A stretch of DNA of 32,000 bases from Thermoprotei archaeon (GCA_038881895.1 JAVZOV010000002.1:316397-348396); one strand, 5' to 3'. Positions 8,051 through 29,406 are shown, numbered from the stretch's first letter. The notes: generated by a model not told the origin, from the letters alone. Numbers and translations: made by a program.

Positions 8051-8070
8051 AGAATCCTCACCCCAGCTAA

Positions 8071-9483: not shown

Positions 9484-9512
9484 TCACAGCTATTTAAAGA
9501 TTTTTAAGAATA

Positions 9513-10602: not shown

Positions 10603-10656
10603 TATAAAACCATTGTGATCCAAAACATGAGGCGACAATCATAACCACCTCTTAAT

Positions 10657-10717: not shown

Positions 10718-10759
10718 AAGAGAAATATAATAAATGATTATAAAAAGTTTAATGAAAGA

Positions 10760-13006: not shown

Positions 13007-13108
13007 TGTTCTCTAATAAGAGTATTTTTACCCAAATATAAATTACAACCACGCCAATAACAATGATAGACTATGTAGTACTGAATTAGCTCGCCTGTGG
13101 AGGCAAGG

Positions 13109-14068
13109 TTAATAGGCTAGCTGATACAGCCCTTAAATGAAATGGAATGAAGTTAAACCCAAAGGATAATGAACAACAAACCAATGAAAACATTAAAACA
13201 AGAACCCAACCAACTTTAAACACAAAGAATATTAACTAAAGAGTAGGTGTAACAGATCGATTATTCAACCTGCATTGTTAAATAAGAGAGGCAAGTAGAT
13301 GAAATTCTTCAGAGTCTGAGACCAGAGTTTCCAGTGTTGGGTTCTGGATTAGTAGGAATGCATAGTGAATTGCTATTTTCATTCCTACTTAACCCTTCCC
13401 CCTCAATTAGCTCATCGGGGTCTCTCTGGGTGAACCCTTCTCCCCGCATCTGAAGGTTTAACACCGCTACAATATCCCTATCCATTGTTAATCCGCATTC
13501 TTCGCATCTCATTATCCTGCCCAGATAGGAAGCCATGCTTCCGGAGCAGACTGGGCAGGTTTTAGATGAGTTGGCTGGGTTAACGTATTTGACTAGAAGG
13601 TTAAGCCATTTAAGCTTGTATTCAAGCATGAGTTGGAATGTTCTTGCGCTCCACTTTGAGAGCTTGGGTTGGTGAGCAGTTTTTGAATAGATAGATTTTT
13701 ATAGGCGTTTTGAGTTGATTTTTTATGCCGATATGGGTCCTGCTTCCAATGCGAATAGGACGACAGGCAGGCGGGGAAACTTCCAATGTGCCGTCCTTCA
13801 CCGTTGGCGGCGAAGGCCCTCGAAAGCGTTTGCCGATAGAGGGAAGGGACGAAAATCCATGAATCCCACAACGGTTTACACCCCAGATTGCTGGTTTTGA
13901 GAGACTCGCAACTCTCCCAGAGCTCGTTATCCTATGAGTTATTGCGTTTGGTTCACATTGTAAACATTACCTACCTAGCCGAGCATTTTCTTATATCGTA
14001 TTTATCCTCAGAACATTTAAATACCATTCATTTCATTAAAGTTCCAGATTTTCTGGCTAGCCAATTAA
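13109..14068 (-). mobile_element. Decayed IS200/IS605-family (TnpB-type) insertion remnant, GC-rich relative to its surroundings
   Basis: Contains the TnpB C-terminal fragment. There is a visible jump in GC content around 13300-13950. It is bounded by an imperfect inverted pair, TTAATAGGCTAGC...TTAAATGAAATG at about 13109-13157 versus the reverse complement of about 14014-14068 (TTAATTGGCTAGC...TTTAATGAAATG). Boundaries are approximate. Confidence 0.4.
13309..13898 (-). pseudogene. tnpB: TnpB (OrfB, RuvC-like RNA-guided nuclease family) remnant: intact C-terminal about 129 codons, decayed upstream part
   Basis: The open frame 13698..13309 reads ...KLSKWSARTFQLMLEYKLKWLNLLVKYVNPANSSKTCPVCSG...RCEECGLTMDRDIVAVLNL (zinc finger plus RuvC-III DRD motif). 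An in-frame TAA lies at 13701..13699. Upstream, a different frame gives AFEGLRRQR-stop (RuvC-II-like). No N-terminal two-thirds of the protein is present. Confidence 0.7.
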
Positions 14069-14251
14069 AAACCTAATACAGTGAAATTATAAGAACTAGA
14101 GTAAACTGCAAATGAATTGTCTAAAGAACTTCAGTTCTAAAGGATGGAAGAGAAGATCATTTTATAAAACCATTTCAAGCGACTTACTTTTATCTTAGAA
14201 AAAATCTAGATTTACATTTATTGAGCAAAAAGGTATAAGATTACGAATGAA

Positions 14252-14962
14252 TTACTCGTGAATTCGTCTAAGTGATGTTAAAAGTTTTTCAACGCTATCA
14301 ATTTTAGATAATATTAGTGGTATTTGTTCTATTTCTGCGATTTTTACTGGCAGTTGATCATTAATCTTTTTTGGGCCATGAATTATAACTACCATTGGTT
14401 TTATAGGATATACACGTACAGCTATCATAGGGGAGCGTCCTTTTGATACGTTTGTAAAAATTGCTGCACGTGCTGTTGTTAATCCCATTAATCTAAAAAA
14501 TTCGTATCCACTCATTGATAATATTGCTTTAATACTATCGATCACTGTGTATCCGAAAACAGGCCTTTCAATTAAATGTTTGCCGTAAAGGATATCACCC
14601 TCAACAGCCTCAGCAAAATTTTTTACTGATACTGGGGTGGTGAAATCTTTCATGTCAAGTATGGCATCTGATTCAAACATAAAGCCAGCTATTTTGCTTG
14701 AGATCGGATAGCCTCTTTCACGATCTATGTCTATTAATCCTCTTACGATCTTATCTATAGCCTTTATTCCAGGGAGTCTACGTCCTTGTTCATAATTGCT
14801 TATCACTGGAGGTGGAATTCTGATCTTTCTTGATAGCTCATTTTGTTGCACATTAAAAATTTCTCGCCATTTTCGCAATCCTTTTCCAGGATTTTCAGAT
14901 GTTATAATGTCTCCAGCAATATACATCATGAGATATTTAATGCTCTTTGGCACTGTAGACAT
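14252..14962 (-). CDS. XRE-type HTH transcriptional regulator with a C-terminal domain of unknown function
   Basis: LRKWREIFNVQQNELSRKIRIPPPVISNYEQGRRLPGIKAIDKIVRGL is a classic HTH_3 (Cro/C1) pattern. 236 aa. Confidence 0.6.
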   Translation of the reverse strand: MSTVPKSIKYLMMYIAGDIITSENPGKGLRKWREIFNVQQNELSRKIRIPPPVISNYEQGRRLPGIKAIDKIVRGLIDIDRERGYPISSKIAGFMFESDAILDMKDFTTPVSVKNFAEAVEGDILYGKHLIERPVFGYTVIDSIKAILSMSGYEFFRLMGLTTARAAIFTNVSKGRSPMIAVRVYPIKPMVVIIHGPKKINDQLPVKIAEIEQIPLILSKIDSVEKLLTSLRRIHE

Positions 14963-15117
14963 TTTTATTCCTAGTTAAGTATTCTATTCAGATTAATATA
15001 AAGTTAATACAACCTACTGTAAAGAAATTATCGCTGTGCTCTAGTAATTGTTAATAAGTTTAAAATCTTTAATAAAAATTAAATTGTTATTGATTGGATT
15101 TGCTAATTCTAAGGATT

Positions 15118-15732
15118 TCATGTTCCTTTTACAATATAAACTAAGGAATCTGCGATATATGTTGCATGATCGGCTATACGCTCTAAATAACGTAATATCA
15201 ATAGTGACGTTATATCGCACAGAGGATTATTAGTGTGAATTGCTTTTTTGAATGCTTCTTCGTATATTTTGTCTATTTCATCATCTTTTTCGTATATTAA
15301 ATGTGTAAGTTCTACATTTCTCAATATAAACGCTTTTATAGCATCTCGCATCATTGTAATAACAATTTTCGAGGCATTTTTTATTATTTCTTTGTCGCAT
15401 TCAGAAATTGCCCCTACATCACCTAGTATGACTGCTATATCGTAAGAATATCGCCCAAATCTATAAAAATCGTAAGATATTTCTAATGCAGACTTTATGA
15501 ATCTTAAATCTGATGCTGCTGGCTGATATCTAGCAATGATCTCTACTACTAGTTCTCCAATTTCTTCTTTCATTTGTTTCAGTTGTTGAGCCCGTTTTAA
15601 AACTTCTTCTTTAACATCAACGCCAGACATGAATGCCTCTAAAGATAGGTTAACTGTTTTTTCAGAAAGTGACGCCATTTCACTTAGCATGTTGTTAAGT
15701 CTTTCTAAACCCAATTCTATGAGCCTAACCAT
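15118..15732 (-). CDS. phoU: PhoU-family phosphate signalling/regulatory protein
   Basis: Two PhoU repeats, including ERIADHATYIADSLVYI near the C-terminus. The track ORF starts at 15789, but Met20 (15732) is preceded by GGTGA and removes a non-conserved hydrophobic leader. Confidence 0.8.
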   Translation of the reverse strand: MVRLIELGLERLNNMLSEMASLSEKTVNLSLEAFMSGVDVKEEVLKRAQQLKQMKEEIGELVVEIIARYQPAASDLRFIKSALEISYDFYRFGRYSYDIAVILGDVGAISECDKEIIKNASKIVITMMRDAIKAFILRNVELTHLIYEKDDEIDKIYEEAFKKAIHTNNPLCDITSLLILRYLERIADHATYIADSLVYIVKGT

Positions 15733-15867
15733 AAAATTCACCGTCAAATTAATACAAAATAATAAAAAGTAGTTTATAAAAATAACCATCGAAATCTATA
15801 CAAATGTATTTAAGAAATATAGATTAGAAATAAATATATCAAGATATTTTCTCTATTTAGATTTAAT

Positions 15868-16890
15868 ATGTCGTATATAGTTAGACGTGTTCAACTTACA
15901 GGTAAATCAACATTTATTGTTTCATTACCAAAAAAATGGGCATCAGAAATGGGATTAAAATCTGGCACACCAATCATGTTTAGAATTGGTCCAGATGGTT
16001 CATTATTAATTTCTCCAAGCAACATCATAAAAGAAACGCCTATCAGTACAATCGTTGTTGGAGCAGATTCAAACGAAGACATAGTATTCAGAGAATACCT
16101 GGCGCATTATCTAGCAGGTTCAACTGTAATAAAAATAATGTTTATCACAAGCTCTAGTTTACGGTCAATAATAAAAAATTTAATAAGAAATAAGCTTATA
16201 GGAATAGAGATAGTTGAAGAAACTTCAAAGGATATAACAACACAAGTTCTCACAAATCACTCACAACTTCCTCTTCTTAAAGCTATTAACCGAATGCACC
16301 TAATTTCACTCTTTATGTATAAGGATGCACTGGAATCATTAAAAACCCAAAATATAGAATTAGCAAAAGACATAATAGAAAGAGATGATGAAGTTGACAG
16401 GTTTTATCATTTTATAGTAAGACAGCTAAACATGGTAGCATTAAATATATCAACAGTCAAGGATATAGGTCTTAACAAATTATCAGAAGGACTTGAATAT
16501 AGAATAATAGCAAAAAGTATCGAAAGAATAGGGGACCATTCAGCTAGAATCGCCAAATCAATAACCAGAATACTAAAATGGCCAACCACAAACTCATTAG
16601 ATTTGTTAGAAGATTTTGGAAATAGAACAGTTTCAATTTATGAAAAAGTTATTCGAGCTCTTAATAAAATGGATAAAAAGTTAGCACAAGAATTAATTAG
16701 CGACACAAGCTTTATTGCCGATTATGAACAAGATATAACCAATAAACTATTGGAAAACAATACAATACCCACATCCACAATGATAGAACTAAAGCTAATA
16801 ATGGAAAGCATTAGACGTATTGCAGAATATAGCGAGGACATTGCAGAGTCAATTATTAACTTATCAGTTAGTGGGGCCGAGGGGATTTGA
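15868..16890 (+). CDS. AbrB/SpoVT-domain + double PhoU-domain regulator
   Basis: N-terminus RRVQLTGKSTFIVSLPKKWASEMGLKSGTPIMF (AbrB-like swapped hairpin). Two PhoU repeats with ERIGDHSARIAKSI and RRIAEYSEDIAESI. The last about 19 nt overlap tRNA-Trp on the opposite strand. Confidence 0.8.
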   Translation: MSYIVRRVQLTGKSTFIVSLPKKWASEMGLKSGTPIMFRIGPDGSLLISPSNIIKETPISTIVVGADSNEDIVFREYLAHYLAGSTVIKIMFITSSSLRSIIKNLIRNKLIGIEIVEETSKDITTQVLTNHSQLPLLKAINRMHLISLFMYKDALESLKTQNIELAKDIIERDDEVDRFYHFIVRQLNMVALNISTVKDIGLNKLSEGLEYRIIAKSIERIGDHSARIAKSITRILKWPTTNSLDLLEDFGNRTVSIYEKVIRALNKMDKKLAQELISDTSFIADYEQDITNKLLENNTIPTSTMIELKLIMESIRRIAEYSEDIAESIINLSVSGAEGI

Positions 16891-16994
16891 ACCCCTGGCT
16901 TCCGGGTCTCCCCTATATCATCCCAAATCCTCATCGGATAGTCAACGCTCCAATAACTGGAGCCCGTCGCCATACCTGGCTAGGCCACGGCCCC
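16872..16994 (-). tRNA. tRNA-Trp (anticodon CCA) with a 49-nt intron after position 37
   Basis: The minus strand reads GGGGCCG-UG-GCCUAGCCAGGUAUGGC-G-ACGGG-CU-CCA-G, then the intron UUAUUGGAG...GGGGAG, then A-CCCGG-AAGCC-AGGGG-UUCAAAU-CCCCU-CGGCCCC-A. The acceptor and T arms pair perfectly. The intron UGGAG pairs with the anticodon-loop CUCCA. No CCA end is encoded. Confidence 0.85.
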
Positions 16995-17390
16995 ACAATC
17001 TATCTTATAAGTAAGGTGAATAAAAAAGTTTCTCATTATAATTGTTCTATAAACTAAAATATCAATCAAATAACCTAGCCCTATTATTAGGTTTTCAGCA
17101 CTTTCTGAATAGGTAAATTTTATGGATTTTTGTTTTTTGTGTTGTGATGCCTTTAATGAACCTCTAGTAACAGAGATAAAGAGGAAGGAACAAAAATCCA
17201 CTAATCACACAACAGTTCTGCAGCAATTTTTGTTGTAGTACTTTTTATCACTCAGTTTTTAACTAGGTAGTAAGTGTGAGTCCTGTTTCCAAAAGGAATA
17301 GGACAGATAAGGATTAACGTCTAACATGAAGTGCTTTACTAGCCCTGAAAGTTTATGTTATAAAATTGATCATGCTATTGAAATACTTAA

Positions 17391-17518
17391 GGGGCCGCCA
17401 GCTTTGCGGCTTTCGCAGGCCCTCGCGGAGCCTACTACTAGCCGCAACGGAGGGCGGTTTAACTTCCGAGTTCGGAATGGGTTCGGGTGAGACCCGCCCC
17501 CTATGGCCGGCGTACCCC
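17391..17518 (-). rRNA. rrf: 5S ribosomal RNA (not linked to 16S/23S in this window)
   Basis: The minus strand reads GGGGUACGCCGGCCAUAGGGGGCGGGUCUCACCCGAACCCAUUCCGAACUCGGAAGUUAAACCGCCC...GCUGGCGGCCCC. It carries the conserved CCGAACUCGGAAGUUAA core and has pairing termini. Confidence 0.85.
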
Positions 17519-17537
17519 AATATTTTCAAAAAAATCT

Positions 17538-17552
17538 TACATTTAAACTTTC
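17538..17552 (-). promoter_or_regulatory. Putative TATA box of the 5S rRNA promoter
   Basis: Minus strand AAAGTTTAAATG, centred about 26 nt upstream of the inferred 5S 5' end. Confidence 0.45.
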
Positions 17553-17645
17553 ATATTGGATTTTTCACAATTCTGAAGAATGGATCTACATTTGACGCTC
17601 TCCACGACTAAAGTCGGGGATTCTCGATCGAATCATATTTTCGTT

Positions 17646-17875
17646 CACAGTTGTTGAGTTCTGGGCTGTGTCAAGCCAGTTGTTATGGACATATGGTTTG
17701 CTTGTCTGAGCCTCCTCACCAGCTTCGTTCGGGGAGCCTTATTCAGGCTTTTAAATATTCACCACATTCGAGCGACACGCTCAAAAACATGTGATGAACA
17801 TCACGTTCAAACCTAATGGATAATTCATCCCAGAAACAAAGTTCTAAGCTTTCCTGTCGAGTCTTATGTAAAATT
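17646..17875. repeat. Copy A of a 230-bp inverted repeat (partner at 27801..28030)
   Basis: I hand-aligned the reverse complement of 17646..17875 with 27801..28030. The two are identical except for one position (A/G within ...TTCACC[A/G]CATTCGAGCG...). No ORF is present. Confidence 0.9.
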
Positions 17876-17960
17876 TTCGATAATGTATACTTATTTTTTT
17901 GAGCAGTTCGTTTACATTTATATGTAACATATTTCTATTTTTCTTTGGTGAAAAAAAGAA

Positions 17961-19115
17961 ATGATGGAAGTATTTTATCAAGTACTTTATGACCAATTTG
18001 GTTTTGGGGAGACTTCGACTACGAACTGGATTAGTTTAATCATAGGAATAGTATATCTGGTTACTCTTTTCTTGTTTATGTTTGGGCCTGTTCAAATGTG
18101 GCTTTATACCGCTAGGGTAAGCAAAGATCTTGTTAGGCTTGAGATTTACGCAAAGAGAAGTCGTGAGATATTCATCTCAGTAGCAAGTAAGTATAATCAG
18201 AATAAGGAAGAATTAGAGAAAATTGTAAGTGATGCATTAGAGTTCTTTTATATAGAGCCTGTAGAACGCGATCCTTATGGATTTATAAAACGGTTAGATC
18301 ACTTGCTTAATGTTTCTAGGAATAAGCTTAAGCTTTTAGTAAATAAAATTGCGCCAATTGCTGATGGAGAAGAGAAAGCAAATTTAGAAAACACATTAAC
18401 AACAGCTATGGCGTTGAATTCCATATATAAATATGCTAAGCACTGGTACATAGTTGGCAGAAAGGCTGGTAGTATAGTTATAATGGCGCAACTGGAACTT
18501 TTAATGGCTCTTTTAAGAGATATAGCTAGAGCTTATTATATGTCATTTTTCGCTACAATTAAAGGAATACCTATCGGTGATGGTGTAGGAGCAATGGTTG
18601 CTGCGAGGTTAATGATGAAGTCTCAAAATTACAAAGTAATTACAACTGAGACTATCATGTCAGAGTTAGATATTGATGGAAGAAAAGCAATGATTGTTAA
18701 AGCGGCTGGTCCAGGTGGTAGAGTTGGAAAGCCTGGTGAAGCAATACAAAAGCTTATAGAAGAATACCAAAACAAAATTAATTTGATAATAATGATTGAT
18801 GCCGCAGCAAAATTAGAAAGTGAAGAAAGTGGAACAATAGCAGAAGGTGTCGGAGCTGCAATAGGAGATCCTGGTCCTGAGAAGTATAAGATAGAGGAAT
18901 CATCAACGAAGTATGGTATTCCTGTAGAATCGATTGTAATAAAGCAAGGGATTGATGAGGCCGTATCAGCTATGTCTAAGAAATTAGCTGAGTCTGTCGA
19001 TAAAGTTATTGAACGGATTAAAAATATTATACATGAGCGTGTACCTGAAGGAGGAATAGTAATAATAGCTGGAATAGGTAATACTATAGGTATTGGTAAT
19101 TCGTTAGGAGGTTAA
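17961..19115 (+). CDS. Conserved archaeal membrane-anchored protein of unknown function (possibly DUF1512 family)
   Basis: 384 aa. One N-terminal TM helix (WISLIIGIVYLVTLFLFMFGPV), then a soluble domain with Gly-rich segments (IPIGDGVGAMVAA, AAGPGGRVGKPGEA, AEGVGAAIGDPGPEK). The family name is recalled from memory, not verified. Confidence 0.55.
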   Translation: MMEVFYQVLYDQFGFGETSTTNWISLIIGIVYLVTLFLFMFGPVQMWLYTARVSKDLVRLEIYAKRSREIFISVASKYNQNKEELEKIVSDALEFFYIEPVERDPYGFIKRLDHLLNVSRNKLKLLVNKIAPIADGEEKANLENTLTTAMALNSIYKYAKHWYIVGRKAGSIVIMAQLELLMALLRDIARAYYMSFFATIKGIPIGDGVGAMVAARLMMKSQNYKVITTETIMSELDIDGRKAMIVKAAGPGGRVGKPGEAIQKLIEEYQNKINLIIMIDAAAKLESEESGTIAEGVGAAIGDPGPEKYKIEESSTKYGIPVESIVIKQGIDEAVSAMSKKLAESVDKVIERIKNIIHERVPEGGIVIIAGIGNTIGIGNSLGG

Positions 19116-19120
19116 AATAA

Positions 19121-19432
19121 ATGAGCACAACAAAACCATCGTATGATCCTTTAACCAGTTTATTGAATGAATTTAAAGACTTCAAGATTATGTCTCTCCT
19201 AGAGTGTACTTCTTGTGGATACAATTTTGAGAGAGCTTATAAAGAGAAAGAACACGTAAATAAAATTACTGAAGATTTATGTCCTAAATGTAATTCGAAA
19301 ATGTACATTAAAGCAGTTTATGTTGTAAAAGAAGAAAAAAGTTTGCAAAAGAAAGGTTTTCTTAGAGGACTACTGCCTTTGACTATTTTTACAAAATTCT
19401 CTAATAAAATTTTAAATTTCAGTAAAAACTAG
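19121..19432 (+). CDS. Small zinc-ribbon protein
   Basis: CTSCGYNF...CPKCNSKMY (CxxC-x26-CxxC). 103 aa. GGAGG Shine-Dalgarno-like element upstream. The 3' end overlaps the convergent map gene by 21 nt. Confidence 0.55.
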   Translation: MSTTKPSYDPLTSLLNEFKDFKIMSLLECTSCGYNFERAYKEKEHVNKITEDLCPKCNSKMYIKAVYVVKEEKSLQKKGFLRGLLPLTIFTKFSNKILNFSKN

Positions 19433-20305
19433 GGGTTTTTCTTTAGTAACTAGAATGGTATGCTCAAATTGTGCTACATAACTGTTGTTTATCTCTGCTA
19501 ATACAGGATATTTTGTAGCAATTTTTCTTTTTACCATCTCATTAACTAGTTGCTTTGCATTACTATAATTATATAAGTACCATCTTGGTGTGAATGGTAA
19601 TCCTTTACGTTCGTTCCATATTCTAACTGCCAGTTCATCTACAGTATCATTCACTCTTTTCGGTTTTGATAATAGAGCATAAATACGCGAATATGATAGG
19701 TCGTGGACTTCCCCTCTTCCATTCGTAGCGAATGGTTCTATTGCATAAATCTCTCCCTCTATTACTTCTCCGTGTTCTAGGAATGCGTACACATTAGGTA
19801 CTATTTTGCCTGTGTGTAAAATATATCGCGAGATTTGATGTCCAGTAAGGTTTGATATCGGTTTGTAGCCATACTGTCGTATAGTGTTTTCAATCGTTTT
19901 ACCTAATTCTTTAAGACTTATTCCAGGTCGTATGATCTCTAGTGCATTTGATAATGCCTTTTGCGCAGCTAATAAAAGTCTATCGTAATCTGGATCAAAT
20001 GAAACAGTAATAGCAGAATCGACGATGTAGCCTTCGATATGTGCTCCGCCATCTATTTTTACGATACTATTAGGTGGTATTACTCTTGCATCGTTTACAT
20101 CAGCTGTATCGTGCGCAGCTATATTATTTATTGATATGTTACATGGAAATGCAGGTTCTGCTCCACCGGATTTTATTTCGTTTTCTACTAATTCGCATAA
20201 TTCTATGATTGGCATATCTACATGAATCTTGTTTGCAGCTTTTTTCAGTGCAGTATAAAGTATCTTCCCTGCCTTTTTGTATAACTCTAGTATCTCATTC
20301 ATCAT
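19412..20305 (-). CDS. map: Methionine aminopeptidase, type 2 (archaeal)
   Basis: 297 aa with a pita-bread-fold pattern: PCNISINNIAAHD, VKIDGGAHIEGYIVDSA, LTGHQI, YAIEPFAT, QFEHTILV. Confidence 0.9.
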   Translation of the reverse strand: MMNEILELYKKAGKILYTALKKAANKIHVDMPIIELCELVENEIKSGGAEPAFPCNISINNIAAHDTADVNDARVIPPNSIVKIDGGAHIEGYIVDSAITVSFDPDYDRLLLAAQKALSNALEIIRPGISLKELGKTIENTIRQYGYKPISNLTGHQISRYILHTGKIVPNVYAFLEHGEVIEGEIYAIEPFATNGRGEVHDLSYSRIYALLSKPKRVNDTVDELAVRIWNERKGLPFTPRWYLYNYSNAKQLVNEMVKRKIATKYPVLAEINNSYVAQFEHTILVTKEKPLVFTEI

Positions 20306-20381
20306 GTTAAAATTAATATACAGAAAGGCATATTTATAGGCTACTTTCTATTTAAAAATTTGATACATAGGTCGGTCTGGC

Positions 20382-21182
20382 ATGAATGTAAAAATACTTG
20401 AAAAAGACCAGCTAAAAATGATGTTCGTGGTAGAAGGAGTGGATGTTACATTACTAAATGCTATTAGAAGAGCGACTATAAACCGCGTACCTACAATGGC
20501 TATTGATACTGTAATAATATTAGAAAATTCATCAATTATGTATGATGAGATTCTTGCACATAGACTTGGTCTTATACCATTAACTACTGACCTTGACGAA
20601 ATGCTGCCGGATACTACTGTGATCCTTAAGTTAGAGGTTAAAGCCGCATCCGACAATCAGGTTGTTTATTCTTCACAACTTGTATCATCTGATCAAAGTG
20701 TTAAGCCAGCTTGGAGCACCATTCCTATAGTTCTTCTTAAAAAAGGACAGCGCATTCAATTAGAGGCTATGGCTAGATTAGGAACAGGCTCAGAACATGC
20801 TAAATGGCAACCGGTATCAGTTAGTGCGTACAAAAACATGCCATATATAGAAGTTGATAAAGAATTGTGGCAAAAATATGATAGTAAGACTGCTGAGAAT
20901 ATAATAAAATCGTGCCCTAAGGGTGTATTAAAAATTGTTGATGGATATCCAACTTTAGCAAATCCAGTCAATTGTACACTTTGTAAATATTGTGAAGATA
21001 TTTCTAATGGCGCCATCAAAGTTCGTTGGCGTGATAATGAATACATATATAGACTTGAATCAACAGGTGCAATGTCACCTGAGAAAGTTTTTCTTAAAGC
21101 GATTGATTTATTAATCTCTGATTGTAGAAATATTAGTTCACAACTGGAGAATCTGGAAAAGGGGGTTGATGTAAGTGGTTAA
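20382..21182 (+). CDS. rpoD: DNA-directed RNA polymerase subunit D (Rpo3) with a 4-Cys ferredoxin-like insert
   Basis: N-terminal LLNAIRRATINRVPTMAID and EILAHRLGLIPL motifs. Insert CPKGV...NCTLCKYC (4 Cys). Context with L18e-L13-S9-rpoN. Confidence 0.9.
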   Translation: MNVKILEKDQLKMMFVVEGVDVTLLNAIRRATINRVPTMAIDTVIILENSSIMYDEILAHRLGLIPLTTDLDEMLPDTTVILKLEVKAASDNQVVYSSQLVSSDQSVKPAWSTIPIVLLKKGQRIQLEAMARLGTGSEHAKWQPVSVSAYKNMPYIEVDKELWQKYDSKTAENIIKSCPKGVLKIVDGYPTLANPVNCTLCKYCEDISNGAIKVRWRDNEYIYRLESTGAMSPEKVFLKAIDLLISDCRNISSQLENLEKGVDVSG

Positions 21183-21540
21183 GAAAGCAGGACCGACAAA
21201 TCCTGTAATACGAGTTTTATTAAGGAATTTAAGGAAAGCAAGTAAAACTTGGGGAGCACCGATTTGGAAAACTGTAGCTGAGCTAATAGAGAAACCTAAA
21301 CGTCAACGTATTCATGTAAATATAAGCAGAGTTAACAGATACACAGAAAAGGATGATGTTGTGATCGTACCTGGTAAAGTATTGGGAGCAGGAAAAATTG
21401 ATCATCCAGTAACAGTTGCAGCGCTCTCATTTTCTAAAACTGCACGCGAAAAAATTATGAGCGCAGGAGGGCAATGCATAAGTATTAATCAGATTGTAAA
21501 GATTAGACCTAGTGGATCAAACGTAAAAATTATAGGGTGA
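21175..21540 (+). CDS. rpl18e: Ribosomal protein L18e (eL18)
   Basis: GTG start. GPTNPVIRVLLRNLRKASK...VVIVPGKVLGAGKIDHPVTVAALSFS is typical of eL18. Conserved position after rpoD. Confidence 0.85.
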   Translation: MVKKAGPTNPVIRVLLRNLRKASKTWGAPIWKTVAELIEKPKRQRIHVNISRVNRYTEKDDVVIVPGKVLGAGKIDHPVTVAALSFSKTAREKIMSAGGQCISINQIVKIRPSGSNVKIIG

Positions 21541-21986
21541 GTAAGATGAATGAGGAGACTGTTATAGTTGATGCAAAAAATCAAATACTAGGTCGAATGG
21601 CGAGCAAGGTGGCATCTTTACTACTTTCAGGTAAGAATGTTATAATTGTGAATGCTGAGAAAGCGGTTATAAGTGGAACGAGAGAAAGGGTTCTAGAAAG
21701 ATTCGAAGAAAAAATTGAAAGATCAACACTGAAAAATCCTGAAAAACTCGGACATCGGAATCCTAGGAGACCTGATGGTATTATAAGAAGGACGATAAGA
21801 GGTATGCTGCCCTATAAACAAGAGAAAGGTAGAAGTGCTTACAAAAGATTGAGAGTCTATATTGGTATTCCTGAAGACTTACAAAACTATAAGTATATTA
21901 GATTCCCTGAAGCTGATACATCTAGACTTGGCAACAAATATGTTTATTTGGATGATGTTCTAAAGATTCTTAGACAAAGCTCTTAG
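21537..21986 (+). CDS. rpl13: Ribosomal protein L13 (uL13)
   Basis: IVDAKNQILGRMASKVASLLLSGKNVIIVNAEK and IIRRTIRGMLP motifs. GTG start at 21537 or ATG at 21546. Confidence 0.9.
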   Translation: MSKMNEETVIVDAKNQILGRMASKVASLLLSGKNVIIVNAEKAVISGTRERVLERFEEKIERSTLKNPEKLGHRNPRRPDGIIRRTIRGMLPYKQEKGRSAYKRLRVYIGIPEDLQNYKYIRFPEADTSRLGNKYVYLDDVLKILRQSS

Positions 21987-21996
21987 GGGTGATTAA

Positions 21997-22398
21997 ATGA
22001 GCATTGTAATAGCTTCCGGAAAAAGAAAGACTGCAATTGCGCGCGCAATAATCAAACCAGGTATTGGGAGAGTTAGAATTAATAGTGTACTATTAGAAGT
22101 TTATGAACCAAAATTTATTAGGATGTTAATAAGTGAACCATTACTTCTTCTAGATGAACAAACTAGAAAAATGTACGATATCGATGTGATAGTGCAAGGA
22201 GGAGGTTTTATGGGTCAAGCTCAAGCAATTAGGACCGCAATAGCACGTGGGCTTATCAAGATTACAAATCGTGAAGATATAAAAGCTTTATATTCAGCAT
22301 ATGATAGGAGCTTAATCGTAGGTGATCCACGTCAGGCGGAACCTAAGAAACCAAGAGGAAGAAGCGCTAGAGCTAAAAGGCAGAAATCCTATAGGTAA
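21997..22398 (+). CDS. rps9: Ribosomal protein S9 (uS9)
   Basis: GKRKTAIARAIIKPGIGRVRIN and the C-terminal DPRQAEPKKPRGRSARAKRQKSYR signature. Confidence 0.92.
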   Translation: MSIVIASGKRKTAIARAIIKPGIGRVRINSVLLEVYEPKFIRMLISEPLLLLDEQTRKMYDIDVIVQGGGFMGQAQAIRTAIARGLIKITNREDIKALYSAYDRSLIVGDPRQAEPKKPRGRSARAKRQKSYR

Positions 22399-22413
22399 TG
22401 TTGGTGATCGTTT

Positions 22414-22626
22414 ATGATGATTCCAATTAGATGTTTTACATGTGGTGCACCGATCGCACAGTATTGGGATGAATTTGTAAAGAGATATGAAAAAGAACAT
22501 GACGCTGGTAAGGTTCTTGATGAGTTAGGGATTAAAAGATACTGTTGCAGAAGGATGTTTATTAGCCATGTAAACTTAATAGATGAAATGATACAATTCT
22601 CACCAGCACCTTCTCAAGAGGAATAA
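22414..22626 (+). CDS. rpoN: DNA-directed RNA polymerase subunit N (Rpo10)
   Basis: MMIPIRCFTCGAPI...LGIKRYCCRRMFISHVNLID, the canonical Rpb10/RpoN zinc motif. Confidence 0.92.
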   Translation: MMIPIRCFTCGAPIAQYWDEFVKRYEKEHDAGKVLDELGIKRYCCRRMFISHVNLIDEMIQFSPAPSQEE

Positions 22627-22656
22627 GTTTATTTCCTAAAGTAACTAGTTTTAAAC

Positions 22657-23919
22657 ATGGATACTGAGATACGTGAGTTAAAGTCACGCATAATTTTAGA
22701 CAGTCGGGGAAATCCTACAATTGAGAGCGAAGTATATACAGTCAAGGGGTTTGGAAGGGCATCTGCTCCTAGCGGATTAAGCACAAGTGCGTATGAAGTG
22801 CCACATATACCTGAAGGTGGCCCAAGAAAAGTATTAGAGATCTTAACTAGAGAGATTTTTCCTAAACTAAAAGGGCTAGATTCCTCAAACCAAGCATTTT
22901 TTGATTCCCAATTAAAGGAATTAGATGGAACCACGAATTTCTCAAGAATCGGGGGAGCAGCAGCAACATCTTTATCTTTTGCAAACGCGAAAGCTGCATC
23001 TAATACATTAGGATTACCACTGTATAAACATCTGAACAATCTAGGTGTATACGAGCTACCTTTGCCTCTTGGTAATGTAATAGGAGGAGGAAAGCATGCA
23101 CGTGATAGGTCGATACCATTTCAAGAAATATTAGTATTTCCTTTAAACCCACCTACGATATTTGATGCTATAATGATTAATGTAATGGTTCATAAAGAAC
23201 TTTCTAAAATACTTTCACATATTGATCCATACTTTGCAGGAGGGAAAAATGATGAAGGAGCATGGGTTACTAAGGTAACAATAGAGAAGGCTCTTGATGC
23301 TGTTAACGAAGCAATAAAAAATGTAAAATCTATGATTAACGTGCCTGTAGAAATAGGAATTGGCATGGATATTGCTGCATCTAATTTATGGTATCCTGAT
23401 AAAAAAGTTTATAAATATGAGGATAAAGTATTTACTGAAGATCAGCATCTTAATTATATGTTTTCGTTAATAGAGAAATATCAAATATTATACTTAGAAG
23501 ACCCATTTCATGAAGATAGTTTTGACACTTTTGCTGAGCTCACTAAGATAGTGAAAGATTATGGTACTGTTATAGTAGGTGATGATATATTCGCAACCAG
23601 AATTGATAGACTCATTGAAGGTATTAATCGTAAGGCAGGAAATGGAATAATAATAAAACCTAATCAAGTTGGCACAATAAGTGATGCAATAAAAGTCATT
23701 AAATATGCACGTGAATATGGATTTACACCGATTGTTTCACACAGAAGTGGAGAGACCACTGATGAGACAATAGCACATCTAGCCGTTGCGTATCAAGTTC
23801 CAATTATAAAAACAGGTACCGTAGGAGGAGAACGGATCAGTAAACTCAATGAGCTTATTAGGATTGAGGAGTTAGATAACAATATAAAACCAGCTTTTAT
23901 TTATAGGATGAAAAAATAA
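22657..23919 (+). CDS. eno: Enolase (phosphopyruvate hydratase)
   Basis: IILDSRGNPTIESEVYT N-terminus; IIIKPNQVGTISDA; VSHRSGETTDETIAHLAV. Confidence 0.93.
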   Translation: MDTEIRELKSRIILDSRGNPTIESEVYTVKGFGRASAPSGLSTSAYEVPHIPEGGPRKVLEILTREIFPKLKGLDSSNQAFFDSQLKELDGTTNFSRIGGAAATSLSFANAKAASNTLGLPLYKHLNNLGVYELPLPLGNVIGGGKHARDRSIPFQEILVFPLNPPTIFDAIMINVMVHKELSKILSHIDPYFAGGKNDEGAWVTKVTIEKALDAVNEAIKNVKSMINVPVEIGIGMDIAASNLWYPDKKVYKYEDKVFTEDQHLNYMFSLIEKYQILYLEDPFHEDSFDTFAELTKIVKDYGTVIVGDDIFATRIDRLIEGINRKAGNGIIIKPNQVGTISDAIKVIKYAREYGFTPIVSHRSGETTDETIAHLAVAYQVPIIKTGTVGGERISKLNELIRIEELDNNIKPAFIYRMKK

Positions 23920-23961
23920 ATATTAGAAGTTTTATTCAAAAATGTACTAGGTGAAAAATAA

Positions 23962-24642
23962 ATGAGCAAACAAGATAATTCATCAGGAGAGAGAGGTAAA
24001 AAGACTGAAAAATACAAGGACGAAGAGAGAACAGAGCAATTAAAAGTGGCACCTACAGAACTTTATGTTACTTCTGGTTTACACATAGGTACACGTTACA
24101 AATCCAAATATATGCAACGTTTCATTTTTAGAACACGCGTTGATGGGATAAACATAATAAGTCCAAAAGATATAGATGAACGGATTAGAGTGGCAGGAAA
24201 GTTTTTGTCATTTTTTGAGCCTGCAAAGATATTAGTAGTTGCATCTAGACCATATGCAATACAACCTGTTAAAAAATTCTGTGAACTTGTAGGTTCTATA
24301 TCATCCTTGGGTAGGTTCTTACCAGGCATGCTCACAAACCCACAATTACCATTTTATTTAGAGCCTGATGTAGTGTTTGTTAATGATCCAATGGCGGATT
24401 CTCAGGCTGTTGAAGAAGCAAGCAAAGTCGGAATACCAGTGGTGGCCTTATGTGATACTGAGCACGAATGTAGCAATATTGATCTTGTAATTCCGGTAAA
24501 CAATAAAGGTAAAAGGGCTTTAGCGACAGTATATTGGCTTTTAGCAAGACAAATATTAAGGGAACGTGGTGAAATACCGCCGGATGGTGATCTAAGCGTA
24601 CCAATAGATGATTTTGAAGCAAAACTTACTGAAGAAAGTTAG
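23962..24642 (+). CDS. rps2: Ribosomal protein S2 (uS2) with a Lys/Glu-rich N-terminal extension
   Basis: SGLHIGTRYKSKYMQRFIFRTRVDGINII, PDVVFVNDP, VVALCDT motifs. About 30 extra charged residues at the N-terminus. Confidence 0.9.
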   Translation: MSKQDNSSGERGKKTEKYKDEERTEQLKVAPTELYVTSGLHIGTRYKSKYMQRFIFRTRVDGINIISPKDIDERIRVAGKFLSFFEPAKILVVASRPYAIQPVKKFCELVGSISSLGRFLPGMLTNPQLPFYLEPDVVFVNDPMADSQAVEEASKVGIPVVALCDTEHECSNIDLVIPVNNKGKRALATVYWLLARQILRERGEIPPDGDLSVPIDDFEAKLTEES

Positions 24643-24724
24643 CATTTAATAAATTTAATCAACTAATGTTAAGTCAAATGCATAAATTTTTGTGCATGCA
24701 GTTACTTAATTTAATAGAAGACCT

Positions 24725-25579
24725 ATGGAACGTATGAGAAAGAGCGCAGTTTCTGGAAGTTTTTATGAAGCTGATCCAGAGGATTTAAAAAAGCAGATTG
24801 AATGGTGTTTCATGCACCCAATAGGTCCTAGAGAATTGCCAAAACTACGTGAACCTAGCATTTCTAGAAGGTTAATCGGTATAATTTCACCCCATGCGGG
24901 ATACATGTACTCAGGACCAGTAGCAGCTCACGGATATTATAAAGTTGCATCAGATGGTAAGCCTGATTTGATTATAATAATAGGGCCTAATCATACAGGA
25001 TACGGTCCAAGCGTATCGGTCATGTCTGAAGGAATTTGGGAGACACCATTAGGAAAAGTACGTATAGATAGTACAATAGCAAAAAAGATAATCTCTGGTT
25101 GCAAATATGCAAAAGATGATCATATAGCACATATTTATGAACACTCAGTCGAAGTTCAATTACCATTTCTCCAATATATTTTCGGTTCCGATTTTAGATT
25201 TGTACCGATTGTTATGATGATACAGGAAGTGGAAACTGCTGAATGCTTAGGTAATTCCATAGCAAAAGCAGTAGAAAATGAAAATGTTTTATTGATAGCC
25301 TCATCTGACCTAACGCATTATGAACCTCATGAAAAAGCTATTAAAAAAGATGGTATCCTGATAAAATCAGTACTTAGCATGGATATAAAAGAATTATTCA
25401 AAACTGTTTACATGCATGATATATCTGCATGCGGACCTGGTGCAATAGCCAGTGTAATTCATGCTTCAAGAATTTTAGGAGCTAATAGCATTACTTTATT
25501 AAAGTATGCAACATCAGGTGATGTATCAGGTGATAAATCACACGTTGTAGGCTATTCCTCTCTTGCTATAGAAAAATGA
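24725..25579 (+). CDS. MEMO1-family protein (AmmeMemoRadiSam system protein B-like)
   Basis: VSGSFYEADPEDLKKQIE, ISPHAGYMYSGPVAAHGY, IIGPNHTG, EHSVEVQLPFLQ, SSDLTHY. Follows rps2, as in many archaea. Confidence 0.85.
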   Translation: MERMRKSAVSGSFYEADPEDLKKQIEWCFMHPIGPRELPKLREPSISRRLIGIISPHAGYMYSGPVAAHGYYKVASDGKPDLIIIIGPNHTGYGPSVSVMSEGIWETPLGKVRIDSTIAKKIISGCKYAKDDHIAHIYEHSVEVQLPFLQYIFGSDFRFVPIVMMIQEVETAECLGNSIAKAVENENVLLIASSDLTHYEPHEKAIKKDGILIKSVLSMDIKELFKTVYMHDISACGPGAIASVIHASRILGANSITLLKYATSGDVSGDKSHVVGYSSLAIEK

Positions 25580-25769
25580 AATTTTGTTTTTCATTATAAA
25601 CCGTTTACTGCCATTAGCATGTAACTCTCGCAAAATGTGTAGAAATAATGACAACTACAGATACGAACTAACTTAACTAGGCACTTATCTATTGCTTAAC
25701 AATTCTCGTATTTGGGAAATATGTTTGACAGATTACCATTCAATGAAACTCAGAAAGTACAAGAAATTT

Positions 25770-26744
25770 TCAGCTCTCAATTTTTGCACCGTTGTAGTCT
25801 ATAGAGGAAATGAATACCGCATTGCTTCTTCGCTCTAATGATTTATGAACATTTTTAAGTATATCATCTTTAACTAATGCCATCACTAATCCACCATTAA
25901 CCCATGTTACTTTAGCACCCAAAGCTCCAGATCTGAGTGCAGCATTGACCAACTCATCTATTTTTGGAGTTGTAATATTTAATGCTCTTATAAGACTGTG
26001 AGCTAGATTCATTAACATTCCTACACGCTCAGTATCCCCTTGATCTAATGCATTATAAATGTTTTCACTTATCCAGTTCATACTACGTGTAATATCGTTT
26101 ATATAGCCTGATATATTACTTAAAAATGGTCTAAGTACTATTTCTGGACTGCTTGCTAATGAATATTTCTTACTGCTTAAGGCTATTAAAAATAACAAAT
26201 TTTTCTTTGATTTTATAAAAATCGGCTTCTCTCCAATCTTAAATACAGCTAAACCGCCTGTTATAAGAAGCATGATTTCGAAAGTTGAAGGGCTTTTCCT
26301 TATGCTTCGCTCCGAATCAAAAACTACTTTCCAAAGAAAGTCACGATCAATACGACCACTTAAACTGTGCGTAACTGACATTACAGTTGCTATAGATAGA
26401 GAAGTAGAAGGAAATACTGACACTGGTATGTCAGACTTTACTGTGATATCTAATTGGTTACTATTCCTAAGAAACTCCATTGTTTTAAGAGCACTTACAA
26501 CTATCGGTCTTAAAACTTTCTTAGCTAATAATCCCCCTTTATCTACAATAATTCTTCTACGCTCATAACGTAAAGATAACATTCCATCCTCAGTGGATAC
26601 TCTTATTTTATTTTCCCCTTTAAAACGAGGTTCCGTATAAATTACTATGCGTTTATTAATTGTAGTTGCTAAGCTTGTTCCTGTACGAAATAATGTATGA
26701 TCACCAGATAAATACACTAAACCTGGGGCAGATGCCTGACTCAT
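25770..26744 (-). CDS. Divergent GHMP-kinase superfamily protein (mevalonate-kinase-like) with a degenerate phosphate-binding motif
   Basis: Motif I-like SAPGLVYLSGDHTLFRTG (versus APGKxILFGEHAVV). The motif II position reads IPVSVFPSTSLSIATV instead of PxGSGLGSSAA. Motif III-like GALGAKVTWVNGGLVMAL. Confidence 0.6.
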   Translation of the reverse strand: MSQASAPGLVYLSGDHTLFRTGTSLATTINKRIVIYTEPRFKGENKIRVSTEDGMLSLRYERRRIIVDKGGLLAKKVLRPIVVSALKTMEFLRNSNQLDITVKSDIPVSVFPSTSLSIATVMSVTHSLSGRIDRDFLWKVVFDSERSIRKSPSTFEIMLLITGGLAVFKIGEKPIFIKSKKNLLFLIALSSKKYSLASSPEIVLRPFLSNISGYINDITRSMNWISENIYNALDQGDTERVGMLMNLAHSLIRALNITTPKIDELVNAALRSGALGAKVTWVNGGLVMALVKDDILKNVHKSLERRSNAVFISSIDYNGAKIES

Positions 26745-27318
26745 ATCCTCTCACATCTAACTTACCAAATTAATAACATTTCACATAAGTTTTAAAGTTA
26801 TCTATAAAATTATTAACACTACTTCTACACGTTTTAGCAAGTGTTGAAATCTATCCCACAATTAAAGGTCGTAAGATTTCTTGCTGAATTCATGTAATGC
26901 AAATACCTAAAAATTTATTTTACCCTATGTTATTTGTTTTTGCATCGAATTTTATAACTTCTTGGATAAATCTCTTAAGGTTTGGATTTTGAGTAAACAC
27001 CTCAAAATTCCTAGAGATATCGCAAAAATTATGCGAATTATCTGAAGTAAGATATGTAGCACCTCAACGGGCGATGCATGATAATGATTGAAATATGGGT
27101 GAAAGATACAAAAGAGCTGGCAAAACAATCTCTGAGAAAAATAAACACTATAGATGGTGTCAAGAAGATTTGTCCCGTAATCCTCAAGAAACCGAAAGAA
27201 TAATATTATAGTATGAAGAGATCAGATTGAGGATTAGGGGGACTTTTAGCTGACGGCCATGAATTAGATAAATATTTATATATAAACGGATATATTTAAA
27301 AGAAGAGGTGAAAAATTT

Positions 27319-27738
27319 TTGGCTTCTAAAGAGCTGCTAGATTTATTGAATGAGGCTATAGCACGAGAGCTCCAAGTGTCCATTCAATATATGTGGCAGC
27401 ATGTGCAATGGATTGGTGTTAAAGGCTTTGCGGTTCGAGAGGAATTGAAGAAGATAGCTATAACCGAAATGAAGCATGCCGAGGCTATAGCGGAGAGACT
27501 TTCCTATTTAGGTGGTACCCCAACAACTGAGCCAGCAGAAATATTTGTAGGGAAGACGCTGAAGGAAATGATTGAGCAGGATATAAAAGACGAGGAGAAC
27601 GCAATAAAACTCTATAAGGAGATAATAGAGAAAGCCCATAAAGAAAACGATGTGACAACATCGTTTCTATTTGAAGGAATACTAAAGGATGAAGAGGAAC
27701 ACCACGACTTCTTCACAACGCTCCTAGAAGAAATTTAA
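27319..27738 (+). CDS. Ferritin-like diiron protein (bacterioferritin/Dps-like, 139 aa)
   Basis: Four-helix ligand pattern: ARELQVSIQYMWQH, TEMKHAEAIAERL, DEENAIKLY, DEEEHHDFF. Apparent TTG start preceded by GAGGTGA. Confidence 0.8.
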   Translation: MASKELLDLLNEAIARELQVSIQYMWQHVQWIGVKGFAVREELKKIAITEMKHAEAIAERLSYLGGTPTTEPAEIFVGKTLKEMIEQDIKDEENAIKLYKEIIEKAHKENDVTTSFLFEGILKDEEEHHDFFTTLLEEI

Positions 27739-27756
27739 CAGCACAAAAAATTACTC

Positions 27757-27785
27757 TATTCTTCTTTCTTTTTTCTTTTCTTCCT
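27757..27785 (+). terminator. Putative oligo-T/pyrimidine-tract terminator after the ferritin-like gene
   Basis: TATTCTTCTTTCTTTTTTCTTTTCTTCC, about 20 nt after the stop codon. Archaeal terminators are T-tracts. Position only. Confidence 0.35.
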
Positions 27786-27800
27786 AAAGGATAGATTGCT

Positions 27801-28030
27801 AATTTTACATAAGACTCGACAGGAAAGCTTAGAACTTTGTTTCTGGGATGAATTATCCATTAGGTTTGAACGTGATGTTCATCACATGTTTTTGAGCGTG
27901 TCGCTCGAATGCGGTGAATATTTAAAAGCCTGAATAAGGCTCCCCGAACGAAGCTGGTGAGGAGGCTCAGACAAGCAAACCATATGTCCATAACAACTGG
28001 CTTGACACAGCCCAGAACTCAACAACTGTG
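27801..28030. repeat. Copy B of the 230-bp inverted repeat (partner at 17646..17875)
   Basis: See copy A: 229/230 identity in inverted orientation. Weaker similarity continues for about 50 nt beyond (28034..28078 versus 17592..17636, 33/45 ungapped). Confidence 0.9.
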
Positions 28031-28197
28031 GTGATGATTTGACCAAGAACCTCCCACCCTAGTTGTAGAGAATGTCAACATCCAGTAAGAACAATATTAG
28101 AGTTAATATTAGGAAAAATAACACAATTCATAGCAAAAAGTTTAGTTGGTACTCTTATAATTGAATTTAAACGTTGAGTCTGAATCGTAAAATTGGT

Positions 28198-29406
28198 TTA
28201 GATTATTGTTTTACTAATATATGTTTTAAGATAACGAATAATATCTGGCATGTTTATTTTCATCGGGCATACTTCTTTACACCTTCCACATCCTAAGCAT
28301 ATTAATGCTAATTGTGCAGCAGTGTCAATGTCTTCTGTTATAGCTGTCCATACAATACCCATAGGGCCCCCATACACGCTACCACCCCAAATATTAGCTA
28401 CTAAATCCCAGATAGGGCATTCTGCTTGGCATCTACCGCATTTGATACATAAAAGTTGTTCCCATAGATATTGATTTTTAATGGCATCAGATCTCCCTCC
28501 ATCATACAATATTAAATGGAACTCTTTAGGACCATGCACACCATATACACGATGATATTCTATGTCAGCAGTACTGCTCGGACCAGCTGTTAAAGATAAA
28601 TATGTTGGAGGATATAATCCTGCATAACCAGCTTGCACAAGTGCTTGTTTATAAGCATCATTTATAGTAGGCATTATTTTCTCTATACTTGCAATCGCAA
28701 TGTGTTTTGGTGGTAAAATTGTAGATAGTCGAATGTTTCCCTCATTTGATATAAGGATAGTAGCACCTGAATCTGCCGCAACTACATTTGCTCCACTAAT
28801 ACCTACATCAGCATTTATGAATTTCTCTCTTAAAAACATCCTAACACCTTTAACTATATCTTCATACGACATTTCTTCTGAGACATGAACTCCTATATTT
28901 TTAAGAAGTTTGACTGCTTTTTCTCTAGACATGTGAATTGCTGGGGCTATTGCATGCATAGGTTTATCTTTAGATATTTGTATTAAAAGTTCACCTAAAT
29001 CAGTTTCGTAGACAATATGACCTTTTTCAATTAAATGTTCACGTAATTTTAACTCTTCAGTTACCATGGACTTAGCCTTTACTATAAGCTTTCTATCATT
29101 GCCAACAATCTCATCGATTATTTTAATAGCTTCATGCCTATCTTTAGCAAAATATCCTTTTCCATTAATCGATTCTACATTTTTGATAATTTCATCTATG
29201 TAATAATCTAAATTTTTTAAAGTTTCTTCTCTTATCTTTCTTACCTCATCAGCGAGTTTAATTAAATAAGGCCAGCGTTTTAATACTTTATGAGATGCCG
29301 GTAATAGGTTTTTAAGTGTTCTTTGTAACCCAGATTGTAATGATTGATCATCAAGTGCAGTATAAATCTCTTTAAGTATTGCATCAATCTTTTTCATAGA
29401 TATCAT
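28198..29406 (-). CDS. LutB-like iron-sulfur protein (LUD/DUF162 domain + 2x[4Fe-4S] motif)
   Basis: C-terminal CIKCGRCQAECP and CLGCGRCKEVCP. The central part resembles the lactate-utilisation LUD domain (GISGANVVAADSGATILISNEGN). Confidence 0.75.
   Translation of the reverse strand: MISMKKIDAILKEIYTALDDQSLQSGLQRTLKNLLPASHKVLKRWPYLIKLADEVRKIREETLKNLDYYIDEIIKNVESINGKGYFAKDRHEAIKIIDEIVGNDRKLIVKAKSMVTEELKLREHLIEKGHIVYETDLGELLIQISKDKPMHAIAPAIHMSREKAVKLLKNIGVHVSEEMSYEDIVKGVRMFLREKFINADVGISGANVVAADSGATILISNEGNIRLSTILPPKHIAIASIEKIMPTINDAYKQALVQAGYAGLYPPTYLSLTAGPSSTADIEYHRVYGVHGPKEFHLILYDGGRSDAIKNQYLWEQLLCIKCGRCQAECPIWDLVANIWGGSVYGGPMGIVWTAITEDIDTAAQLALICLGCGRCKEVCPMKINMPDIIRYLKTYISKTII

Follow-up and report, generated by a model that had tools for sequence, protein, structure and literature searches.

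Several described systems resemble the locus studied here, which lies in a 32,000-nucleotide (nt) stretch of DNA from a Thermoprotei archaeon (GCA_038881895.1, JAVZOV010000002.1:316397-348396; hereafter the window) and consists of two copies, XA and XB, of a short gene-less element. IS608 of Helicobacter pylori is cut 3' of TTAC (CL), 19 nt 5' of the foot of its left palindrome, and 3' of TCAA (CR) (PMC3201880, PMC5934647). Its guides AAAG (GL) and GAAT (GR) are located directly 5' of the palindromes, and it inserts 3' of TTAC without gain or loss of DNA (PMC3201880, PMC5934647). Palindrome-associated transposable elements (PATEs) are defined as non-coding elements with near-terminal IS605-like palindromes, often a deleted core, and neither terminal inverted repeats nor target duplication (PMC3119063). 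They were defined in Haloquadratum walsbyi and noted also in Geobacillus stearothermophilus (PMC3119063; PMC10055086), and they often encode omega-RNAs that are acted on in trans (PMC10055086). In TnpB systems, the 3' region of the element encodes a guide RNA (PMC8612924, PMC4615843, PMC10055086).

The two copies in the window are very probably non-autonomous PATEs of 270-276 nt that derive from a tnpB-only IS200/IS605 element. Known PATEs are likewise too short for a transposase, carry palindromes related to those of IS605, derive from tnpB elements by deletion of the core, and occur in several sizes and many copies. They differ from XA and XB in host, which here is an uncultured, probably thermophilic archaeon of the Thermoprotei type and not a haloarchaeon or a member of the Bacillota, and in the left end, which here is a nested double hairpin; in addition, decay and a mosaic pattern mark the two copies of the window. 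IS608 and the family described here agree in all four tetranucleotides for cleavage and guide, so that an archaeal family shares the exact signals of IS608, and the distance of 19 nt between TTAC and palindrome foot recurs in XA. However, IS608 has tnpA as well as tnpB, while tnpB alone is present in the full-length relatives here (an IS1341-like organisation), TCAA starts 4 nt past the right palindrome foot here and about 10 nt past it in IS608, and there is no sequence likeness beyond the signals. Taken as PATEs, the striking repeat formed by the two copies is ordinary selfish DNA and not a new RNA gene or switch, and the question that it raised is mostly closed.

Anatomy and end signals of XA and XB

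A repeat search of the window revealed one long inverted repeat, whose arms A and B (17646-17875 and 27801-28030) are 230 nt in length. The base-by-base comparison showed that the arms are reverse complements at 229 of 230 positions, as the initial annotation had reported, and the sole mismatch is located at 17764 (A) and 27912 (C, plus strand). Since the next best inverted repeat in the window is 31 nt long with 77% identity, the 230-nt repeat is far beyond chance. Its GC content of 42.6% exceeds that of the window (33.7%) and of its flanks (22-34%). The elements hold no meaningful open reading frame (ORF): the longest ORF starting with ATG has 15-16 amino acids, and the TTG-initiated ORFs of 50-54 amino acids that overlap the repeat are mechanical. 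The initial annotation was accurate on the identity, the absence of an ORF and the raised GC content, and the short hairpins that it had listed are present. ORF and Pfam inspection also bore out its list of the genes between the arms, which comprises DUF1512, Zn-ribbon, M24 peptidase (map), Rpo3/RpoD, L18e, L13, S9, RpoN, enolase, S2, Memo, GHMP kinase and ferritin. Two features had been overlooked. A 5S rRNA gene (17393-17514, minus strand) begins 78 nt downstream of arm A, and past one end of each arm a weaker homology runs on for 48-54 nt. The repeat and the elements that contain it are laid out as follows.

17646..17875, minus strand: arm A, comprising the 8-nt flank AATTTTAC (including the TTAC target) and the first 222 nt of XA
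27801..28030, plus strand: arm B, comprising the 8-nt flank AATTTTAC and the first 222 nt of XB
17592..17867, minus strand: XA, complete 276-nt non-coding IS200/IS605-derived element (very probable PATE), left end ATAAGACTCG..., right end ...GAGCGTCAA
17868..17871, minus strand: TTAC target and putative left cleavage tetranucleotide of XA, the signal described for IS608 (PMC3201880)
17829..17852, minus strand: left-end guide AAAG of XA (17852-17849) and inner palindrome CTTAGAAC-TTTG-TTTCTGGG (17848-17829), named after PMC5934647
17592..17623, minus strand: right-end signals of XA, namely GAAT (17623-17620), CCCCGAC-TTTA-GTCGTGGAG (17619-17600) and TCAA (17595-17592)
27809..28078, plus strand: XB, second copy, 270 nt, identical to XA at 221 of 222 nt, with 35/47 in the last 48 nt
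27805..27808, plus strand: TTAC target and putative left cleavage tetranucleotide of XB, directly 5' of XB
28047..28078, plus strand: decayed right end of XB, with GAAC (28047-28050), a non-folding palindrome (28051-28070) and TCAA (28075-28078)

XA and XB each begin directly 3' of TTAC and terminate in TCAA. All four signals are intact in XA (TTAC, 19 nt ending in AAAG, GAAT, and TCAA), and the foot of its left palindrome lies 19 nt from TTAC. In XB, the right guide GAAT is mutated to GAAC, while AAAG, TTAC and TCAA are kept. No terminal inverted repeat joins the termini of either copy, and neither copy is bordered by a target-site duplication or any flanking direct repeat. The flanking sequences differ, being AGTATACATTATCGAAAATT / ATGTAGATCC... 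for XA and TAAAGGATAGATTGCTAATT / CATCCAGTAAG... for XB.

Because the published definition of PATEs fits these properties, we assign XA and XB to this class. Classical MITEs (miniature inverted-repeat transposable elements), for example Sulfolobus SM1-SM4, are short, non-coding and multi-copy, and are mobilised in trans; they carry terminal inverted repeats and target-site duplications. The window elements are alike in being short, non-coding and multi-copy, but they are not classical MITEs, since both the terminal inverted repeats and the target-site duplications are absent. Thus, the MITE label of the initial annotation does not hold in the strict sense and PATE is the right one, while its broader proposal of a non-autonomous mobile element in two or more copies is upheld: the copies are gene-less derivatives of TnpB elements, and the family is multi-copy in related genomes.

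Elements of this kind would be mobilised in single-stranded form by a Y1 transposase (TnpA) that is provided in trans. The enzyme would bind the palindrome near each end and would cut 3' of TTAC on the left and 3' of TCAA on the right, and these cleavage sites would be recognised by pairing with the 4-nt guide just 5' of each palindrome (AAAG and GAAT). The excised element would then insert 3' of another TTAC, leaving the target unduplicated.

Two minor observations concern the ends of the copies. In XB only, the decayed right end (28055-28070) is 81% complementary over 16 nt to a segment just upstream (28018-28033). The upstream segment straddles the point at which identity with XA breaks off, and the complementarity may represent an alternative hairpin or chance (about 0.2-0.3 matches expected, by a rough estimate). 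On the outer side of XA, the approximately 30 nt upstream of TTAC (17872-17899; AATAAGTAT...TTTAC) resemble the flank of a full-length element at three other loci (L025, L038 and L047), which lie in Ca. Geocrenenecus and on two contigs from metagenomes, and whose neighbouring genes differ from those of the window. As no DUF1512 or PhoU homologue is found there, the likeness is probably an AT-rich chance match, or else an extended target preference.

The parental TnpB family and the decay of the window copies

To find the ends of XA and XB elsewhere, we used a 5'-block search pattern (GAAAGCYYAGA-N1-12-TYTGGGATGAATT). It matched 25 metagenome loci, five of them in one sample and three on one 261-kb contig, and also 21 loci in genome assemblies, whose hosts are Methanomethylicales, Nitrososphaeria, Bathyarchaeia, Ca. 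Geocrenenecus, another Thermoprotei metagenome-assembled genome (MAG) and a Freyarchaeota MAG. At many loci, an ORF follows the 5' block after about 45 nt, and the same 3' motif recurs 1.12-1.46 kb downstream. The ORFs of these parental elements encode 338-417 amino acids in 8 loci. The 338-amino-acid product of one of them (L039) matches Pfam OrfB_IS605 and Cas12f1-like_TNB (PF01385, PF07282), and it scores 179 bits against the NCBIfam model NF040570, 'RNA-guided endonuclease TnpB family protein', whose cut-off is 100. Gene-less forms with the same two ends are found at other loci and measure 127, 145, 241-285 and 339 nt. The parents, which measure 1.1-1.5 kb and have a single tnpB (338-417 amino acids) and a structured 3' region, are in this like archaeal IS1341-type (tnpB-only) elements with their 3' sense-overlapping or omega RNAs (PMC4615843, PMC8612924), whereas the window copies have lost tnpB and two of the conserved 3' helices.

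The signals at the ends are conserved throughout the family. In 33 of 38 distinct contexts, TTAC stands 18-20 nt 5' of the inner left hairpin (-17 to -19 relative to the anchor), and the remaining contexts show single-base variants. Without exception, the sequence just 5' of this hairpin is GAAAG; AGAAT is invariant or nearly so 5' of the right hairpin, and most copies terminate in GTCAA. When we compared the two halves of each palindrome across the family, 88.7% of the cells pair in the left palindrome, with compensatory changes at 6 pairs, and 88.5% pair in the right one, with compensatory changes at 4; in controls in which the partners were slid, pairing was 28-62%. In the full-length relatives, the 3' region that adjoins the right end is likewise structured and shows covariation. 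These features provide a signature for annotators of MAGs of TACK archaea: TTAC, 19 nt ending in AAAG and a nested left hairpin with GGGATGAATT at one end, and GAAT, a right hairpin and GTCAA at the other. In Thermoprotei, Methanomethylicales, Nitrososphaeria, Bathyarchaeia and one Asgard MAG, the signature recovers the TnpB family together with those of its derivatives that lack the gene. The left-end pattern also matched a single bacterial bin (L045; CAYXCZ010000053.1, Lentimicrobiaceae), with TTAC at the atypical position -13, and this match is possibly due to chance or to a mis-binned contig.

XA and XB belong to this family by several comparisons. Left-end and right-end profiles built without the window sequences recognise the left end of XA (E-value 3e-12), its right end (2e-10) and the right end of XB (0.009). 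The first ~108 nt and the last ~90 nt of the copies match the ends of the 1.1-1.5 kb TnpB-encoding elements of related archaeal metagenomes, and in the full-length L039 element their counterparts are positions 2-111 and 1092-1180. Between these blocks, the copies are similar to the end of the tnpB coding region. A gene-less element of 285 nt from a Nitrososphaeria MAG (L049) can be aligned with XA over its whole length, with 68% identity over 299 nt (E-value 2e-15). In the full-length relatives, the last ~170 nt consist of the tnpB tail and the region encoding the guide RNA. These alignments show that in each window copy the left end, as far as the former start of tnpB, is fused to the parent's final ~170 nt.

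Detailed comparison of the window copies with the full-length elements revealed decay at both ends and in between. When folded as single-stranded DNA, the left end of L039 adopts its nested double hairpin with a predicted energy of -11.9 kcal/mol (z -5.4), while the window left end does not take up that fold and reaches -3.2 kcal/mol (z -0.3). The predicted energies of the right ends are -7.7 kcal/mol for L039, -3.6 for XA and 0 for XB. In the 3' region, full-length members keep their helices with covariation. By contrast, helix A, which has 5 compensatory pairs in the family, is lost in both window copies, and 3 of the 6 pairs of helix B are broken in both. Finally, the window copies have other sequence in place of the TATA-like TTAAATATA box that full-length elements carry upstream of tnpB. 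These folding predictions suggest that both copies are old fossils that are probably neither mobile nor RNA-producing.

Insertion site, synteny and competing explanations

Relatives in this region (L001-L014; about 77% nucleotide and 88% protein identity) are collinear with the window over 6852-26805, and the 230-bp repeat is found in none of them. Their spacer between the 5S and DUF1512 genes is variable. In L013 and L014, it has 160 nt and no element, in L011 and L012 it contains unrelated sequence, and in the L001-type genomes it harbours a 127-nt family member in the opposite orientation, which shares the 5' block and the 3' motif. The window spacer without XA measures 205 nt, compared with 196 nt in L013, and the shared blocks are in the same order. 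Such presence/absence variation at one intergenic site indicates a mobile element and not a conserved gene. A conserved non-coding RNA (ncRNA) gene upstream of 5S was likewise rejected, as the relatives lack it, carry the other short form reversed, or have an empty spacer.

At the left junction, the order and orientation of PhoU-tRNA-5S, XA and DUF1512 through GHMP kinase are as in the relatives that lack the repeat, and thus the 9.9-kb block is in its ancestral orientation on this side; the relatives show only the assembled orientation there. On the right, synteny ends at 26805, about 1 kb inside arm B. After GHMP kinase, the relatives L001-L010 continue with AhpC, AA_kinase (isopentenyl-phosphate kinase) and FMN_dh (IDI-2), whereas the window (26806-29406) instead contains a weak left-end-like remnant, a probable disrupted Lrp/AsnC gene, ferritin, XB and a LUD/CCG/FAD-oxidase (lactate-utilisation) cluster. 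The remnant, about 50 nt past the end of synteny, is listed here.

26853..26897, minus strand: weak third left-end-like remnant (TTAC-ATGAATTCAGCAAGAAATCTTACGACC...), nhmmer E-value 0.002

Next to it, two ORFs of 27 and 41 amino acids (26962-27203, plus strand) match AsnC_trans_reg below threshold (E-value 0.0015-0.011) in an otherwise non-coding gap of 570 bp, and they are probably the pieces of a disrupted small Lrp/AsnC ligand-binding-domain gene. The best matches of the ferritin (91-92%) are in Bathyarchaeia MAGs, which suggests local replacement or transfer. The closest relatives of the LUD cluster (87% nucleotide identity) can be aligned only to the right end of XB, and their contigs (L040-L042) end about 250 nt past the LUD gene, near the position of XB in the window. 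Similarly, the contigs of L008, L009 and L010, which come from several independent assemblies, begin inside the short element of the L001 type, and such elements evidently interrupt assemblies made from short reads. The right side is a rearranged, IS-littered patch, and nothing ties this patch to recombination between the arms.

How the two copies came to be so similar can be judged from the limits of their identity. Starting at the left terminus, together with the AATTTTAC flank that includes the target, identity extends over 230 nt and then drops abruptly to 74%; over the last 48-54 nt, XA and XB agree at 35 of 47 aligned bases, the differences being mostly transitions, and are further separated by an indel of 6-7 nt. 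The decay features of the shared part are the same in both copies. Shared decay combined with a divergent right end indicates that the copying postdates the decay and that the right end was not used in it. We infer from this mosaic that the near-identity over 222 nt probably arose by gene conversion or as a crossover chimaera between pre-existing diverged copies, and not by recent transposition. Conversion between old copies 10 kb apart and a crossover chimaera, in which XB would combine an XA-like copy with an older element, fit alike. The initial annotation had proposed recent duplication, transposition or gene conversion; this was reasonable, and the 229/230-then-35/47 pattern favours its conversion or recombination and speaks against a clean transposition. 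It is improbable that one of the two (XB or XA) was recently copied from the other by TnpA, as an active PATE would be, since a transposed copy would bring the right end of its donor. Here, the right ends differ at 12 of 47 aligned bases and by the indel, the guide of XB reads GAAC with a palindrome that does not fold, even the left end that they share forms a poor hairpin, and no TnpA is seen in the window. This holds even though both copies sit 3' of TTAC without target duplication, the signals of XA are complete and show the canonical spacing of 19 nt, and the family has many copies, which vary in presence and absence at other loci. An assembly artefact, in which a single copy entered the contig twice or the assembler or polisher homogenised diverged copies, is very unlikely, because the two copies differ in their TTAC-flanked contexts and in their diverged right ends, which are joined to unique flanks, one mismatch between the copies is kept, and dozens of unrelated assemblies contain the family independently. 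What lends this explanation its weight is that the source is a MAG contig and that contigs of relatives break in or beside family members (L008-L010, L040-L042), which shows that assemblers struggle with these repeats. For 230-bp repeats of this kind, it should be considered that MAG assemblies break there or may be mis-oriented.

Homologous recombination acts on inverted repeats of this length and identity (230 bp, 99.6%), and the pair had accordingly been proposed as the footprint or driver of an inversion. The synteny comparison that the initial annotation suggested found no positive evidence for this: 5S, arm A and DUF1512 are collinear with the repeat-less relatives, the left junction is in ancestral order, and no inversion was shown. 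That the pair forms an active inversion system, or is the scar of an inversion of the 9.9-kb housekeeping block, thus seems highly unlikely despite the length and identity of the arms and the break in synteny after 26805 with a left-end-like remnant at that point, since the break falls about 1 kb inside arm B and not at it. Moreover, Pfam scans of the ORFs in and around 15-32 kb brought up housekeeping and metabolic genes alone, and neither a recombinase nor an invertase. The orientation of XA, which is flipped relative to the L001-type element, would require a separate insertion, because a crossover between the arms leaves their orientation unchanged. The repeat itself could still allow the intervening 9.9 kb to invert by homologous recombination, although no inversion was seen. 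A further alternative concerns RNA. That the arms are working orphan guide-RNA (omega-RNA-like) genes, used in trans by a TnpB encoded elsewhere, with the guide taken from the DNA 3' of the right ends, is doubtful in the extreme, though a little less so than inversion. The copies retain the last ~170 nt of the parent, which is the guide-RNA-encoding part in TnpB systems, the tnpB-sense strand folds better than shuffled sequences (z -3.1, compared with -1.1 for the other strand), and PATEs often encode omega-RNAs (PMC10055086). Against it, helix A is deleted or broken and helix B weakened in both copies, the promoter-like TTAAATATA box is replaced, and the window contains no intact tnpB. Rfam, run as the initial annotation had suggested, gave no match on the repeat in the whole window at gathering thresholds or on both arms at E<=10; the whole-window matches were 5S rRNA and an intron-containing tRNA only. 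With no Rfam family and with the 3' helices of the family broken in the window copies, an ncRNA gene as an independent reading of the repeat was not borne out. We give very little credence to a combined possibility, namely that the decayed copies are kept near-identical by ongoing recombination, with the block of rpoD-L18e-L13-S9-rpoN-eno-S2 (9.9 kb) flipping measurably in the natural population, or that their guide RNAs are still used in trans.

Here, we need to consider several points that weigh against our preferred reading of XA and XB as decayed PATEs homogenised by conversion or crossover. There is no TnpA gene and no intact tnpB within the window; Y1_Tnp had no match among the window ORFs scanned and TnpA was not seen in the elements examined, and no genome-wide search was made. 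XA keeps all four signals at the spacing of IS608, and its immobility can only be inferred, because the weak hairpins were predicted at 37 °C and the host is probably a thermophile. A conversion that ends exactly at the left limit of homology is mechanistically awkward, and a crossover chimaera or segmental event fits equally well. In addition, consensus polishing or bubble-popping of the metagenome could have inflated the identity of the copies.

Two other readings of short motifs were rejected. A candidate origin-recognition box (CTCCAC-N10-GGGG) coincides with the right-end palindrome of the family, its G-run is not conserved, and no orc1/cdc6 gene is nearby. On inspection of the sequence, a K-turn or C/D-box reading of GGGATGAA was dropped, since the GA that it requires beside the stem is missing on the opposite strand.

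Other features of the window

The 5S gene beside arm A stands alone and scores 84.8 bits; it has 66% GC in a window that is 34% GC overall, and a TTTAAAT box lies at about 17547. It is followed by a tRNA gene (16872-16994, minus strand), which was detected by Rfam with 50 bits but missed by ARAGORN, and whose anticodon-loop region is interrupted by about 53 inserted nt, presumably an intron.

Farther from the repeat, a 1.2-kb segment (13046-14261) with 43-46% GC is not found in the L001-type relatives and has 76% DNA identity to part of two other loci (L020/L034). Within it, 13432-13629 (minus strand) encodes a C-terminal (Cas12f1-like_TNB) remnant of a different TnpB that is 35% identical to the L039 TnpB. 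Judged from its sequence, the segment is a second, unrelated IS605-family remnant.

When we aligned the window with L001, a thioredoxin-fold gene (8403-9199, compared with 1345-2105 in L001) was inverted relative to the L001-type relatives, and its neighbours were collinear. At the left of the window, 601-5810 (plus strand) comprises a sub-threshold Phage_scaffold match, a T2SSE-type ATPase, three ORFs without a family and a HerA/DUF87 ATPase. This region could be a pilus or secretion locus or an integrated element, and it is unrelated to the repeat.

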